Shown: positions 2,796 to 36,362 of the stretch, one piece after another
Layout: each line of letters opens with the position of its first letter
How positions within the stretch are numbered: position 1 is the stretch's first letter
Position numbers and translations under genes: made by a program
Assembly: GCA_001804205.1 (NCBI GenBank)
Contig: MHFM01000009.1
Coordinates: forward strand, 61,588 to 97,949
Direction of reading: 5' to 3'
Origin: Omnitrophica bacterium RIFCSPLOWO2_01_FULL_45_10b
GTDB lineage: Bacteria; Omnitrophota; Omnitrophia; Omnitrophales; Danuiimicrobiaceae
Length of the DNA: 36,362 bases
The notes under the pieces: generated by a model
Told to the model about the DNA's origin: nothing
The model's input: the letters and a program-made list of their open reading frames with translations, nothing else
The model's database searches: none

Positions 2796-3527
2796 ATGAA
2801 GCGTATTGCGATTTTTGTTTCCGGTTCCGGAACGAATATGGAAAATATCGCGCGGCATGTAAAATCGGGGGTGCTCACTTGTGATATCGCGCTTATCGTA
2901 TCCGACAATCCAAATGCTTCGGCGCTTAAGCGCGCCGCGAATCTTGGCCTAGAAACCTTCGTCATCGAACGTAAGGATTTTAAGTCCAAAGTGGATTTTG
3001 ATGTTAAAATAATGGAGAAGCTTAAGGAAAAGAAGATAGAAGCCGTCATTTTGGCGGGTTACATGCGGATTTTGAGCCCCGAATTTGTTCGCACTTGGCA
3101 GTGGTGTGTTTTGAATATTCATCCAAGCCTTCTTCCAAAGTATCCTGGAGCCCATGCCATTCGGGATGTCTGGGAGGCAAAAGAGAAAGAAACCGGGGTT
3201 ACCGTTCATTTTGTTACCGAGGATGTAGATTGCGGCCCTATTATTTTACAGCGCAAGGTTGCGATCAAACCAGACGATACGTTGGAGACGCTTGAAGCAC
3301 GTGTGCATGCAGCGGAGTATGAACTTTATCCGAAAGCCTTGGAGCTTTTTCTTGCCGGCAAATTGAAGGTAACTGGCAAAACCGTCATTGCGAGCCCCGT
3401 CCGCCCAGCGGAACGGCGGATCCGCCGGTCTGTTAGGCGGAAAGGGGCGAAGCAATCTCCGAGATCGCTTCGTCGCTTTACTCCTCGCGATGACGGCGGA
3501 TCAGCTTCCGGAGGCGTTCAACAATGA
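2796..3527 (+). CDS. purN: Phosphoribosylglycinamide formyltransferase with a ~45-aa repeat-encoded C-terminal tail
   Basis: [12 protein letters not shown]-terminus and NIHPSLLP formyltransferase core. The conserved core ends near ...LKVTGKTV. The rest ([11 protein letters not shown]...[14 protein letters not shown]) is a translation of the palindromic element at 3384-3494. The stop overlaps the next start (ATGA, 3524-3527). Confidence 0.85.
3384..3494. repeat. GTCAT...ATGAC palindromic element (111 bp) lying inside the purN reading frame
   Basis: The termini GTCATTGCGAG (3384-) and CTCGCGATGAC (-3494) are inverted repeats. Internal GAAGCAATC / GATCGCTTCG motifs are shared with the copy at 4597-4733. 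Confidence 0.75.
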
Positions 3528-31658: not shown

Positions 31659-33689
31659 ATGTCGAAGACGGTCATTGCAAAAATATCCTTCAATCTTCAG
31701 TGGCTCGTCATTGTCTTCATTCTTTTCATTTCCACTTTTACCTTCGGCGGAACTTCAGTTCACTCCATTTATTGGACCCGCCTCTTCATTGCTTTTAGCC
31801 TCATTCTTCAAGCCCTTCTGTTCTTATCGGAGGACCATTATTTTAGCGATTTCCAGCCTGTCATTTGCCTCCCTCTTTTTTTCTACGCTGCTTTCCTCGC
31901 TTTGGTTTATGTTCAGGCTTCCTTCGGTTTGCGCCTATTTCGAGATTCAAGAATAGGCAGTATCAATTCCTATGTTACGTATAACTCGTTTATTCAGTTG
32001 GTTATTTATCTTTTGTTCTTTTTGATATGCGTCAAAACAGTGGCAAAACGTGAGGCGGCGGTGCGGATCAGCTCTTGGGTCGTGATATTTGCTTTGGGGA
32101 TTACCGCATGGGGTTTGATTCAAAATGTTATGGTTGACAGAGCCGTAATTAAAGAGCTTATCCTAACGGCTCGCAGCTTATGGTTCGGCCCATTTGTGAA
32201 TCAAAATAATTTGGGAGGATTTCTCGGGCTTAGCTTTCCTTTATTTTTAGGTTTGATGCAATACCGCTGGCATCGATTTAAAAGGAAATCGGCCGGAGAC
32301 CTTCAGGAAAAAGCCGTTTGGGTTAAATGGGCAGCGTTTGTCAATACGGGCACCGGTTTTTTACTTTTATTGGCTATTTTAGCTCTCGTCGCATGTTTTT
32401 TTACAGGGGCGAGGATGTCTGCCTTTGTCCTTTTGTTTTGCTGCATTGTTTATTTTTCAGTCTCCAGTTTCCGGAAACGCAATATCAAGATTTATTTATT
32501 GCTCCTCGCGATTTTGCTTTCGTCTTTTCTCTTCATTCGATGGCTTGGCTATGACAAAACAGCGGCTCAATTCAGCGCAAAGCAATTGCAAAGCACTTTT
32601 GACGTACGCATGGCCATTGCCAAGGAATCCCTTCAGATTTTTTATAGGTTTCCGCTTTTTGGAACCGGCTTGGATACGTATCGATTTATCGCGGGAAAGG
32701 TAACTGCCCCTGGTATCTGGGACTACAGTGTTGTTCCGCATGTTTACAACGATTATGTGGAATTATTGACGGAAGCAGGAATCGCTGGGTTCTTTTTATT
32801 TTTCGCCGCTATTTTTTCACTTCTGCTCATCGCCTTATTCCAAAGGGCTAAAAATCCTTCTTCCTGGAGCCGCACGATCACTTATCAAGCCATCATTTCA
32901 ATGTTGGGAATCGGCATTATGGAATATGCGGATTATCATTTGAAATTTCCCGCGGTTGCTTTCATGTTCACACTCCAATTAGCCTTTTTGTTTCAATTGA
33001 GCCGTTTCAAAGAAGCTCATAGCGTGCAGCCTGAAGCTTGCGGCAGAATGAAATTTGGCAAAGCAGTCTTACGATTAATATTTCCTCTCATCTGCTTTGC
33101 CTTAAGTCTTTCCTTGGTTTTTTCCGCTACCCGTATTTATCACGCGCAACGCTTGTCGTACGCCGGTGGAAACCATTTGTTGAATTTGAAAAACGCCGTA
33201 ACCTTACAGCCTTCCAATGCCGATTTCTGGCATCAGCTCGGCGCGGAGTACGATTTGAAAGCACGGCGGTCGCAGGAGGAAGAGAAAAAGGCATTTCAAA
33301 AAGAGGCAATTGTTTGTCTGCAAAAAGCGGCGGCGCTCAATCCTACTTTCGCATATTATTGGTTTTATTTGGGCACCTTGGAATATTCAGCCGGGTTTAC
33401 CCAGGAAGGAATTGTTTCGCTTAAACGATCTCTGGTTTGGGCGCCCAACAGGCAGGTTCGGTATTCGCTTTACCTGCTTTCGGTTTATTTAAGGGAAGCG
33501 AAACGGAATGGGCCCACTCCTGAGGGAATTAAATATTTTGTGAAGGCGAAAAACCTGTACCAGTCGCTTCAGCGCTTCGAGCCTCCGCCTAAAAAAAGGG
33601 ACTACGAACACTGGATGGCCAAATATTATTACGACCAGCTCCAGCGCGCAATTCCTTATTGGGAAAACAGTCCATCCACCAAACAATAG
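31659..33689 (+). CDS. O-antigen ligase/polymerase-family (Wzy_C) membrane protein with C-terminal TPR domain
   Basis: At least 10 TMs, the PHVYNDYVELLTEAGIAGF motif (H..N.Y.....E.G..G of the Wzy_C/O-antigen ligase family), and C-terminal TPR-like repeats (NADFWHQLGAEY, YYWFYLGTLEY). Confidence 0.75.
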   Translation: MSKTVIAKISFNLQWLVIVFILFISTFTFGGTSVHSIYWTRLFIAFSLILQALLFLSEDHYFSDFQPVICLPLFFYAAFLALVYVQASFGLRLFRDSRIGSINSYVTYNSFIQLVIYLLFFLICVKTVAKREAAVRISSWVVIFALGITAWGLIQNVMVDRAVIKELILTARSLWFGPFVNQNNLGGFLGLSFPLFLGLMQYRWHRFKRKSAGDLQEKAVWVKWAAFVNTGTGFLLLLAILALVACFFTGARMSAFVLLFCCIVYFSVSSFRKRNIKIYLLLLAILLSSFLFIRWLGYDKTAAQFSAKQLQSTFDVRMAIAKESLQIFYRFPLFGTGLDTYRFIAGKVTAPGIWDYSVVPHVYNDYVELLTEAGIAGFFLFFAAIFSLLLIALFQRAKNPSSWSRTITYQAIISMLGIGIMEYADYHLKFPAVAFMFTLQLAFLFQLSRFKEAHSVQPEACGRMKFGKAVLRLIFPLICFALSLSLVFSATRIYHAQRLSYAGGNHLLNLKNAVTLQPSNADFWHQLGAEYDLKARRSQEEEKKAFQKEAIVCLQKAAALNPTFAYYWFYLGTLEYSAGFTQEGIVSLKRSLVWAPNRQVRYSLYLLSVYLREAKRNGPTPEGIKYFVKAKNLYQSLQRFEPPPKKRDYEHWMAKYYYDQLQRAIPYWENSPSTKQ

Positions 33690-33705: not shown

Positions 33706-35004
33706 ATGTTCTCGGAATTTACATTAAAACGTGTCTTGAAATGGCTTCACAAAGGAGGCTTCGCCGTCCTGGATCAAGGGCTTTTTGCAGGCTCTAATTT
33801 TTTGGCCAGCATCCTCTTAGCCCGATGGCTTCCGGCCGCTGAGTATGGGGCGTTTGTGGTGGCGTATTCTATTTTTTTGCTTCTCGGAGTTTTTCATACA
33901 GCAATTTTGACTGAGCCAATGCTTGTCTTTGGCTCTGGGAAGTATAGTAGCAAGTTCCAAAGCTATCTGGGATGCCTTTTGTATGGTCATTTGGTGCTTG
34001 CGCTTACCATAAGTTTAATCATGGCAATCACCGCAATTATCTTTGCTCACTTTGGTTCTCGCTTGCTTGCGAATGCCTTTTTCGGCTTGACGGTTGCGAG
34101 CCCTTTCATCCTTCTGCTTTGGATTTTACGGCGGGTTTATTATGTTGAATTCAAACCGCATTTGGCAGCTCTAGGGGGTATCCTTTATGTGGTATTGATG
34201 TCTTTTGGAATGTATGTGCTTTATCACATGGAATTGCTCTCATCCTTTTCCGGATTTTGTGTTATGGGGCTTGCAAGCGTGTTGGTCAGTGTATGTTTCT
34301 TATGGTTTTTGCGTCCTGATTTACGTCTTAGCAAGAGTCGAGCCGTATTTCATTCTGTTGCAATGAATCACTGGAACTACGGCAAGTGGTCTTCTGCCAC
34401 AGCTCTTCTTATGTGGCTTCCAGGCAATATTTATTACACCCTCTTACCAATTTGGACGGGGCTTGAAGGGAGCGCCGCTTTGCGGGCAACAATGAACCTT
34501 GTCATGCCGATTTTGCAGGCCAATACGTCAATAGCAATCCTTTTAATCCCGCGCTTTGTAAAGAAGTTCAAAGCTCACGGCGTAAAAAGTCTTCATCGGT
34601 TCGTTCTCCTCACCTTTGTCCCATTTATTGGAGGCCCCTTGTTCTATTGGATATTTATTGTTTTATTTGGCGAAAGAATAATGAGTTTGCTTTATGGAGC
34701 TAAATACCTTGGGCATAGCAATTTGTTGACCCTCCTTAGTCTAATTCCACTCTCTGCAGGTTTTATATCTGTTTTCAGCACGGCTCTGCGTGCAATGGAG
34801 CGGCCTGATCGCATTGTTTTATGCTACCTCTTTTCAAGTGTTGCAACTTTAGTTTTAGGATTTTGGTTGGTTTCCACTCAAAAGGAAATGGGAGCGACGA
34901 TAGGTTTGCTGGGGTCTTCAATTGTTACCGCGTTTGCAATGGGTCGAGCTTATTTTAAAGCAATTTATCAACCAAGGAAAATAAGCTATGGCATGTCTGC
35001 GTGA
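33706..35004 (+). CDS. Polysaccharide/oligosaccharide flippase (Wzx, MOP superfamily)
   Basis: 432 aa with about 12 TMs and a typical Wzx hydropathy layout. Located in the Wzy-dependent locus. Confidence 0.65.
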   Translation: MFSEFTLKRVLKWLHKGGFAVLDQGLFAGSNFLASILLARWLPAAEYGAFVVAYSIFLLLGVFHTAILTEPMLVFGSGKYSSKFQSYLGCLLYGHLVLALTISLIMAITAIIFAHFGSRLLANAFFGLTVASPFILLLWILRRVYYVEFKPHLAALGGILYVVLMSFGMYVLYHMELLSSFSGFCVMGLASVLVSVCFLWFLRPDLRLSKSRAVFHSVAMNHWNYGKWSSATALLMWLPGNIYYTLLPIWTGLEGSAALRATMNLVMPILQANTSIAILLIPRFVKKFKAHGVKSLHRFVLLTFVPFIGGPLFYWIFIVLFGERIMSLLYGAKYLGHSNLLTLLSLIPLSAGFISVFSTALRAMERPDRIVLCYLFSSVATLVLGFWLVSTQKEMGATIGLLGSSIVTAFAMGRAYFKAIYQPRKISYGMSA

Positions 35005-36362
35005 GCTTTTAGCAGAGTTTGAAAATCGCGGTGTCCGCTATTGCATTCTTCACGGATGGCAATCGTTGCCCGACCACTTGCCGTCGGATTTGGATATTGT
35101 GGTTCACCCAAGTGATTTAAATAAGCTGGAGCGAATTCTGAGAAATTCAGAAAGCATCAAGCTTGTCCAATTGGTTGAGTACAAAACTTCTTGTTATCGC
35201 TTTGATCTGGCCTTTAAGGAAAATGAAGCCACTCGGTTCATTCCGTTAGACACTGCATCAGATTATCGTTGGGATGGCTTTGTATTCTTCGAAGCGGAGG
35301 AACTTTTGGCTGATAGAAAAAAGTGGAATGGGTTCTGGGTCGCAGCGCCGAAAGTTGAATTTGCTTATTTATTGGCAAAGAGAGTTTCGAAAGGAATTCA
35401 ATCGGACCGGCAGAAGATCATTCGGTTGCAAGAGCTATGCAATGCACTTGGTGAAAATGCGTATGTTATTACGCTTCGTTTGTTTGGTGCCTCATTGGGG
35501 GAAAAGGTAATTCGATGGATTACGAATTCAGATTGGGAGAATTTGGAAGCTCATGCGCCTTCATTAAAACAAGCCTTGCATTGGGAAGTAGTAAAACGCG
35601 ATCCTTTAAACCCTGTTTGTTATTGGGCTTCAGAGCTGAAACGGATTTGGCTAAGATTGAAATATCCAACAGGTTTATTTGTTGTAGTTCTGGGTCCGGA
35701 TGCAGCAGGTAAAAGCACATTGATTCAGCACCTTCAAAATAACCTCGCTCCACTTTTCAGGCGGTCGACGGTTTTTCATTTATATCCTAATTTGTTTGAG
35801 GTAAGAAAAGGTCAGGGCCCGGTTACAAATCCGCACGGTAAATCTCTGCGTTCTTGGCTCACCTCGTTGCTTAAAATGTTGTATTATTTGGTAGATTATG
35901 ATTTAGGTTATTTGATTAAAATATGGCTTCAGCTAGTGCGTTCTAACGTAGTATTATTCGACCGTTATTACGATGATCTTCTTGTAGATCCTTGCCGTTA
36001 CCGTTACGGTGGCCCAAAATGGCTGGTTTCTTTTTTTCGTTTCTTTATCCCAAAGCCTGATCTTTTTTTAATCCTTGATGTTCCCGAGGAGCAAATCATA
36101 GCACGGAAACAGGAGGTCTCACATGAGGAAATAAAGCGTCAACGCCAAGCCTATTGCCAGTTAGCATCCGAACTTCCAAATGCTATTTTGTTGGATGGTT
36201 CTCTAAAAGCTGATTTTGTTGCGCAATCTGCTGAAGAAATTATTTTAGATTATATGCAAGAGCGTTATCTTAATCGAAGAAGCAATTATTTTCATCGAAA
36301 CGATTTCGAAACACTCAATTGGCTTGAGACAATCTTGTGTTCTTCCGGAAAAGGGCGTTTTG
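34988..36362 (+). CDS. Long ORF open at the 3' edge (at least 458 codons), absent from the supplied ORF track: N-terminal nucleotidyltransferase-like domain + thymidylate-kinase-like P-loop domain
   Basis: Read codon by codon from ATG 34988 (which overlaps the Wzx stop by 17 nt) to the window end with no stop. N-terminus: GVRYCILHGW...LPSDLDIVVHPSD. P-loop VVVLGPDAAGKST at about codon 233. LFDRYYDD (DRY motif of dTMP-kinase-like folds). Confidence 0.7.
   Translation, partial: MACLRELLAEFENRGVRYCILHGWQSLPDHLPSDLDIVVHPSDLNKLERILRNSESIKLVQLVEYKTSCYRFDLAFKENEATRFIPLDTASDYRWDGFVFFEAEELLADRKKWNGFWVAAPKVEFAYLLAKRVSKGIQSDRQKIIRLQELCNALGENAYVITLRLFGASLGEKVIRWITNSDWENLEAHAPSLKQALHWEVVKRDPLNPVCYWASELKRIWLRLKYPTGLFVVVLGPDAAGKSTLIQHLQNNLAPLFRRSTVFHLYPNLFEVRKGQGPVTNPHGKSLRSWLTSLLKMLYYLVDYDLGYLIKIWLQLVRSNVVLFDRYYDDLLVDPCRYRYGGPKWLVSFFRFFIPKPDLFLILDVPEEQIIARKQEVSHEEIKRQRQAYCQLASELPNAILLDGSLKADFVAQSAEEIILDYMQERYLNRRSNYFHRNDFETLNWLETILCSSGKGRF

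Follow-up and report, generated by a model that had tools for sequence, protein, structure and literature searches.

The open reading frame (ORF) that runs off the 3′ end of the DNA analysed here, a 36,362-nucleotide stretch of contig MHFM01000009.1 from Omnitrophica bacterium RIFCSPLOWO2_01_FULL_45_10b (hereafter, the window), makes up the first part of an intact gene of 859 codons, which encodes one cytoplasmic protein with three nucleotide-using catalytic domains: a Pol-beta-type nucleotidyltransferase (NTase), a P-loop kinase resembling thymidylate kinase (Tmk) and a kinase of the choline kinase (ChoK)/APH type. The gene belongs to a conserved cassette found in Wzx/Wzy exopolysaccharide loci – Wzx flippase, fusion enzyme and one GT4 glycosyltransferase, often joined by an S-adenosylmethionine (SAM) methyltransferase. 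Each domain comes from a known superfamily, and the nearest functional analogues, the Lic pathway and WbdD/WaaP, are known; a full-text literature search found no published characterisation of the fusion family itself, in agreement with the first-pass annotation, a reading of the letters alone, which recognised no characterised homologue. The role that we favour, with somewhat better than even confidence, is phosphate-linked tailoring of the polysaccharide repeat unit before it is flipped. The gene structure, the folds, the conservation of catalytic residues, the conserved neighbourhood and the fusions to Wzx are the observed part of this reading; from them we infer what the enzyme acts on, what it makes and in which sequence the steps run.

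One gene across a contig break

Translated from the ATG at 34988, the forward-strand frame 34988–36362 gives 458 residues without a stop and is open at the 3′ end of both the window and the contig, just as the first-pass annotation had described it. Its guess that the frame was missing from the ORF list for want of a stop codon fits as well: 34988–36361 is listed only when open ends are permitted. The stop codon of the upstream Wzx ORF lies at 35002–35004, giving the 17-nt overlap with the start of the fusion gene that had been noted, and a Shine-Dalgarno-like AAGGAA can be read at 34974–34979 (+), at a spacing of 9 nt from the start codon. More than 140 homologues match the frame, the best non-identical ones with an E-value of ~1e-147, which discounts chance as its origin.

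The end of the window is the exact end of contig C9 (97949 bp; the genome bin comprises 1.84 Mb in 75 contigs and is 93% complete), and the ORF is therefore cut by an assembly break, not by biology. Searching the same genome with the C-terminal part of a long homologue returned a frame, open on its 5′ side, with which contig C59 begins (272 aa, with HGDFTPWN...DWEY). Looking up exact matches to the protein of the gene after it on C59 led to four public contigs of the same organism, one in GCA_001804055.1 (MHFF01000031.1) and the others in three ENA assemblies. The tail of the window and the head of C59 are joined on one molecule in 4/4 of these contigs, with a gap of 386 nt between them in each case. 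One of them, L055, agrees with the last 4791 nt of the window at 100% identity, and the opening 7000 nt of C59 match the public contig at 99.84%. The complete, uninterrupted ORF lies at L055:3417–5996 and encodes product P0264. The extension of the contig that had been suggested as a check has thus given a full gene of 859 codons: codons 1–458 occupy 34988–36362 (+) of the window, and the remainder lies in the 386-nt unassembled gap and then in C59:1–819.

The assembly breaks at codon 459 because a GC-rich palindromic repeat of ~95 nt begins exactly there. This copy (L055:4792 to ~4890, in the 386-nt gap just past window position 36362) lies in frame within the coding sequence and is found in 4/4 public assemblies; its translation, VSSPLLSFPHSASRSGGSAILLGGVGGQSRV, lengthens the linker that joins the Tmk-like domain to the ChoK-like one by ~31 residues, a stretch that homologues P0012, P0025 and P0027 do not have. 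The repeat core, TCCGCC..GGCGGATCCGCC.TTCTGCTGGGCGG, has ~28 related copies genome-wide. One related copy is also seen in the window, at ~3384–3494, and the copy in the gene is without the ...CGCTCGCAATGAC-type termini of most others.

A shorter candidate for the full-length protein, the 496-aa P0002 encoded on contig L002 (ENA contig k141_398380), was rejected: it is 100% identical to the fusion protein before diverging at residue 453, and the 44 residues at its C-terminus are encoded by AT-rich DNA that this genome does not contain. At the nucleotide level, L002:3241–3411 covers this transition, with 100% identity to the window through codon 452 and then the foreign AT-rich DNA, on the other strand of which a small hydrophobic ORF begins. 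The end of k141_398380 probably arose when MEGAHIT made a chimeric join at the repeat, and it has yielded a false 496-aa ‘complete’ protein in the databases.

Three nucleotide-using domains

The N-terminal domain (aa 1–226; 34988–35665, +) has a Pol-beta-type NTase fold followed by a helical bundle. Its AlphaFold2 model, built with 43 sequences, has a pLDDT of 96.1, and the top Foldseek matches in the PDB are all nucleotidyltransferases: JHP933 is the best (4o8s/4ok0; E = 5e-6), followed by ANT(2'')-Ia (5kqj), TM1012 (2ewr) and LnuA (4fo1), with RelP and Pol mu further down. A sequence search of the PDB with this domain gave no match, the relatives coming from fold comparison alone. With these four proteins domain 1 shares the layout of an alpha/beta NTase domain plus a helical domain and the DxD...D triad; ANT(2'') and LnuA nucleotidylate hydroxyls of sugar-like molecules. 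The distance to them is nevertheless considerable: TM-scores are modest (0.40–0.46) and identities low (14–18%), no Pfam model, NTase models included, reaches its cut-off on the domain, and the G[GS] motif is atypical, reading H-G-W. The metal-binding [DE]x[DE] motif is S33-D34-L35-D36-IVV (35084–35104, +) and the third carboxylate is D88 (35249–35251, +). Among 44 homologues D36 and D88 are invariant, S33 and D34 are kept in at least 90%, and E124, K131 and K135 of the helical part are also conserved; given the acidic triad and these helical-part residues, domain 1 looks catalytically competent. The first-pass annotation’s nucleotidyltransferase-like N-terminus is thus correct at the level of the fold and the active-site carboxylates (D34/D36/D88). 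Membership in the ‘uncharacterised nucleotidyltransferase’ family NTP_transf_5 (PF14907) was tried and rejected: the score is 13.2 bits against a cut-off of 31.2 (E = 0.068), over 50 residues only, and PF14907, whose hits are inconsistent, is not among the families most often matched by the 44 homologues.

The second domain (aa 227 to ~445; 35666–36322, +) is a member of the Thymidylate_kin superfamily, as indicated by a PF02223 match just over the cut-off (31.3 bits versus 27; E = 2e-7), the fold (Foldseek probability 1.0 and TMt 0.66–0.77 against Tmk structures) and the motifs. The P-loop or Walker A motif GPDAAGKST (aa 236–244; 35693–35719, +) has invariant G236, G241 and K242 and a T244 kept in at least 90% of homologues; DRYYDD (aa 325–330; 35960–35977, +), which contains the DRY motif of Tmk/dNK-type kinases at 325–327, and the LID-like R373-K374-x-E376 (36104–36115, +) are likewise conserved. 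The P-loop and DRY motif on which a thymidylate-kinase-like domain had originally been proposed are therefore accompanied by profile and structural matches. With Tmk (PF02223/TIGR00041) the domain has in common the fold (TM ~0.7), the P-loop, the DRY motif and the LID-type basic residues; unlike Tmk, it scores below the equivalog cut-off, is always fused to an NTase, and carries a family-specific insert of ~25 aa at the dTMP site. The conserved sequence of this insert, GPVTNPHGKSLRS (aa 277–289; 35816–35854, +; P282 invariant, H283 in at least 90%), follows the consensus GPVT[DN]PHGKPPRS, is positioned where Tmk binds dTMP, and falls in the sole lower-pLDDT stretch within domain 2 of the AlphaFold2 model of aa 1–458.

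Most database names would make this protein a (fused) housekeeping dTMP kinase, an explanation to which we give virtually no credence. While the source annotations read ‘dTMP kinase’ or ‘thymidylate kinase’ and PF02223 is passed, the Tmk equivalog model TIGR00041 scores 30.3 bits against a cut-off of 83.25 (19 bits in the scan of the own genome), and a canonical tmk that scores 164 bits with the same model lies elsewhere, at C42:54086–54670. Furthermore, the insert replaces the dTMP-binding region, the fusion gene is always located within polysaccharide loci, and it is not kept in relatives as a single essential dTMP kinase would be: searches of 40 relatives from its order did not find it, and only 1/300 other sampled genomes of the phylum has a match, a distant one. 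Such rarity is incompatible with an essential gene, and we reject the housekeeping role on the TIGR00041 score, the separate tmk and the scarcity in relatives.

The third domain, a ChoK/APH-type kinase (aa 585–859), lies beyond the contig break and is separated from the second by a linker of ~140 aa. Homologues fall into two length classes, ~430–480 aa and ~780–870 aa, of which the long one has this extra C-terminal domain. The first-pass annotation had proposed a fusion of a nucleotidyltransferase-like and a dTMP-kinase-like domain; both domains stand, and the two-domain architecture gives way to one with a third domain past the break. The motifs are those of the APH/ChoK fold, namely HxDxxxxN, D(W/F)E and the N-lobe Lys/Glu: the catalytic loop HGDFTPWN (aa 736–743) and the Mg-binding DWEY (aa 755–758) are invariant across the aligned C-terminal domains (the former as HGDxxPWN), the N-lobe Lys (K of YCKVGW; VKVG) is also invariant, and the downstream Glu (E33 of alignment A4) is kept in at least 90%. 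Searched as a profile against the PDB, the domain is closest to the LicA choline kinase 4r77 (E = 1e-4, the likeness being confined to the catalytic core), followed by corramycin phosphotransferase and a ChoK-family protein. The Pfam models stay under their cut-offs: PF01633, the top match, scores 18–20 bits against 29, and PF01636 14–16 bits against 23.2, although some homologues do pass the latter (best E = 7.8e-8 among the members of alignment A1).

The resemblance to LicA brings in a credible, if unlikely, alternative to tailoring of the repeat unit: precursor activation of the Lic type, carried out in one protein, whose substrates would be soluble metabolites and not the lipid-linked unit. 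A free sugar or small alcohol would first be phosphorylated by the ChoK-like domain; the NTase would convert this to an NDP-activated donor, for which the P-loop kinase would supply or modify the nucleotide; and the GT4 or another transferase would then add it to the repeat unit. The Lic pathway (LicA/LicC/LicD; Streptococcus pneumoniae, Haemophilus) does likewise combine a ChoK/APH-fold kinase with nucleotidyl transfer and place a phosphate-linked group on a surface glycan, and LicD-type transferases, too, have a DxD NTase-like fold. Unlike that pathway, the fusion protein has an additional Tmk-like kinase, holds all activities in one chain and is associated with Wzx and a GT4; no LicC-type (Rossmann) cytidylyltransferase, LicB or LicD homologue was recognised when the locus was scanned with Pfam. 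The kinase side fits well: among solved structures, domain 3 is best matched by choline/ethanolamine kinases (LicA 4r77, 3dxq) and by a phosphotransferase of small molecules, PF01633 heads its Pfam matches, and an APH-like domain or gene sits near the GT4 in nearly every locus examined, mostly immediately upstream, with a methyltransferase and a small kinase intervening in the own locus. Anomeric APH-fold sugar kinases paired with nucleotidyltransferases (NahK, AmgK-MurU) are, moreover, established biochemistry. The nucleotidyl-transfer side fits less well, as known NDP-sugar and CDP-alcohol synthases have a Rossmann-type NTP_transferase fold, while the Pol-beta fold normally acts on hydroxyls. 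The scheme also leaves the TMK-like active site without a role, the loci already hold genes for de novo GDP-sugar synthesis, and fusion to Wzx is hard to reconcile with a pathway of soluble metabolites. Counting in favour of the Lic-type route, in one family of phosphonate gene clusters Ppm lies between a ‘thymidylate kinase’ and a PF14907 NTase (PMC8942020); this pair hints at activation of phosph(on)ate compounds and may, by analogy, be related to the pairing in the fusion enzyme.

A cassette with a flippase and a GT4 glycosyltransferase

The gene directly upstream (33706–35004, +) encodes a protein of 432 aa with ~9–10 hydrophobic segments. It has no Pfam match even at E = 1; hhalign aligns it to the Polysacc_synt flippases with a probability of 100% (E = 2.4e-52), and on this basis, in keeping with its polytopic topology, it is a Wzx/MOP flippase, as the first-pass annotation had called it, though a divergent one. 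In other phyla, too, it is kept beside the fusion gene, with a synteny comparison giving 37–44% identity.

Among the loci examined, the fusion enzyme lies beside a Wzx-like flippase and a GT4 across phyla; a survey of co-occurrence with Wzx/Wzy genes had been recommended by the first-pass annotation. The order [Wzx-like]-[NTase-TMK-(APH fused or next gene)]-[GT4] is found in Inmirania, Rhodothermus bifroesti, Thermodesulfobacteriota and Binataceae, with the GT4 at 52–60% identity and the Wzx-like flippase, where present, at 34–44%; no Wzx-like gene was detected in the flank of one Thermodesulfobacteriota locus (L020). The same genes recur in Cyanobacteriota and Vampirovibrio, where the GT4 is 37–38% identical, and several metagenomic contigs also show the Wzx-like/fusion/GT4 order. 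Cultured Leisingera carry a related locus (27% identity) on plasmids, consisting of GT4, flippase, phosphotransferase, EpsG, family protein, glycosyltransferase and rfbCBDA. A methyltransferase lies in or beside the cassette in most loci examined, and in one lineage a hexapeptide acyltransferase is fused to the family enzyme. In the Rhodothermus bifroesti locus the ChoK-like domain is a separate gene of 345 aa, and the Wzx-like gene (L018:8287–10013, a Logan contig) is split into parts of 358, 87 and 139 aa by a frameshift or an assembly error.

P0146 (1312 aa) and P0151 (1356 aa), two of the family proteins examined, have the Wzx homologue fused ahead of NTase-TMK-APH, and P0151 is encoded on a 984-kb contig in the order Wza-Wzc-epimerase-PGT-[fusion]-GT4-GT4-Wzy. 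Flippase and fusion enzyme in one polypeptide favour action on or beside the Wzx substrate, that is, the lipid-linked unit. The same adjacency, and occasional fusion, could also be taken to mean that the protein is an accessory of export that decorates nothing, its NTP-binding domains regulating or energising Wzx flipping, polymerisation or chain length, for example by modifying a protein partner. We consider this very unlikely. Control of exopolysaccharide export by phosphorylation does have a precedent in Wzc-type tyrosine-kinase regulation, and JHP933, the nearest fold relative of domain 1, belongs to the DUF1814/MenT/AbiEii group, which acts on macromolecules (tRNA), not on sugars. The best-conserved neighbour across phyla is, however, the glycosyltransferase and not an export protein; domain 3 belongs with the ChoK/APH kinases of small molecules and not with protein kinases; and the hexapeptide acyltransferase to which some relatives are fused is a typical sugar-tailoring enzyme. 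PADLOC gave no match for the fusion protein and there were no toxin-like hits, which likewise speaks against an export accessory of this kind. A role in defence or as a toxin was rejected on the same results.

Counted with domain 1 as the query in a library clustered at 50% identity, the family reaches 1216 representative clusters at an E-value limit of 0.001, or 392 when the limit is 1e-10, and it is patchily spread over many bacterial phyla and some archaea. Its database names (‘dTMP kinase’, ‘thymidylate kinase’, ‘hypothetical’, ‘phosphotransferase’) are automatic. Close-relative and phylum-wide searches gave no orthologue usable as a full-length template; the closest homologues (51–57% identity) are in other phyla and an archaeon, and the G+C content of the fusion gene, at 42%, is slightly lower than the genome mean of 44.8%. 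As the cassette is rare in its own phylum, horizontal acquisition of the locus is the simplest reading of its distribution and is probably correct.

Within the window, the genes 5′ of the fusion gene encode an EpsL-like outer-membrane barrel, Wza, a Wzz/BY-kinase, a secreted acidic protein, a Wzy_C-TPR protein and the 432-aa Wzx. On its 3′ side (C59/L055) follow a SAM methyltransferase, a 282-aa RIO/APH-like kinase, a GT4, two Wzy_C proteins, another GT4, an AAA_14 ATPase, an epimerase and GDP-mannose 4,6-dehydratase. With methyltransferase, small kinase, GT4 and Wzy genes downstream, the fusion gene is thus located mid-locus, and not, as the first-pass annotation had it, at the end of the Wzy-dependent locus.

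The methyltransferase (TIGR04290/Methyltransf_9-like; C59 824–1573) and the RIO/Bud32/APH-like kinase (C59 1576–2424) intervene here between the fusion gene and the GT4, which directly follows the fusion gene in most other lineages; the pair recalls WbdD, the maker of a methyl-phosphate cap. Three Wzy_C (O-antigen ligase/polymerase-like) genes, at 31659–33689 of the window and at C59 4027–5319 and C59 5573–6871, one of them with C-terminal TPR repeats, are an unusual redundancy for a single Wzx/Wzy locus. The AAA_14/DUF4143 ATPase gene (C59 8676–9830), between GT4 and the GDP-sugar genes, may be an insertion in the polysaccharide locus.

Proposed phosphate-linked tailoring before flipping

In the role that we favour, the fusion enzyme would work at the cytoplasmic face of the membrane and spend ATP or another NTP on decorating the undecaprenyl-diphosphate-linked repeat unit through a phosphate link, probably at the sugar that the neighbouring GT4 contributes. 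Phosphate transfer would fall to one kinase domain or to both; the NTase domain would either nucleotidylate the repeat unit or attach a group through the phosphate added by a kinase; the adjacent methyltransferase may, in this locus, then methylate the product; and Wzx would flip the finished unit last. The proposal of the first-pass annotation, a phospho- or nucleotidyl-type modification or the activation of an unusual sugar, is still the best guess. Catalytic residues are kept in all three domains: D34/D36/D88 in the first, G236, G241, K242, D325-R326-Y327 and R373-K374 in the second, and the Lys, HGDxxPWN and DWE in the third.

Two known systems offer partial parallels. In WbdD (E. coli O9a) and WaaP a kinase-fold enzyme, accompanied in WbdD by a SAM methyltransferase, modifies a lipid-linked glycan in the cytoplasm. 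The own locus echoes this setting with the methyltransferase and extra small kinase after the fusion gene; waaG, which encodes a GT4, and waaP are themselves neighbours. In contrast to this similarity of setting, there is no detectable sequence relationship to the fusion enzyme, and WbdD is a chain terminator in ABC-transporter pathways, whereas the locus of the fusion gene is of the Wzx/Wzy type. We know of no characterised precedent for a Pol-beta NTase and a Tmk-like kinase acting together on a glycan. The pairing of a P-loop kinase with an ANT(2'')-like NTase does have one, if by analogy, in PsmK/PsmN of the pseudomycoidin lasso-peptide cluster, in which the kinase phosphorylates a hydroxyl and the NTase, named an ‘uncharacterised nucleotidyltransferase’, is afterwards required for attachment of a hexose to the phosphate (PMC6993621). 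The likeness is one of enzyme type: PsmK and PsmN are separate proteins, and their substrate is a peptide.

Several points weigh against phosphate-linked tailoring. The family has no studied member, and for none of its carriers has a substrate, a product or a polysaccharide with phosphate been described. Sequence does not point to an acceptor for either kinase domain. Domain 3, being ChoK-like, is closer in kind to small-molecule kinases than to known glycan kinases such as WaaP or WbdD, and by this resemblance activation of a soluble precursor fits as well as direct action on the lipid-linked unit. Of the two fusions to Wzx, P0146 rests on a single 4.3-kb contig. Finally, the structure model spans aa 1–458 of the 859. 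A bolder version, which we think quite unlikely, would have the three active sites docked on the flippase and installing a phosphodiester-, pyrophosphate- or nucleotide-linked cap that licenses the repeat unit for flipping by a dedicated, divergent Wzx, and would make this a widespread, undescribed step of Wzx/Wzy pathways.

For annotation, the consequence is that the ORF at the end of the window should be recorded as part of an 859-aa gene and not as a truncated kinase, and that hundreds to thousands of family entries now stand in the databases as ‘dTMP kinase’ or ‘hypothetical’. Over many bacterial phyla and some archaea, the family belongs to a polysaccharide cassette as one of its fixed components. 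If it does place a phosphate- or nucleotide-linked group on repeat units, this would be a new tailoring reaction of exopolysaccharides and would explain why loci with the cassette have a divergent Wzx of their own.

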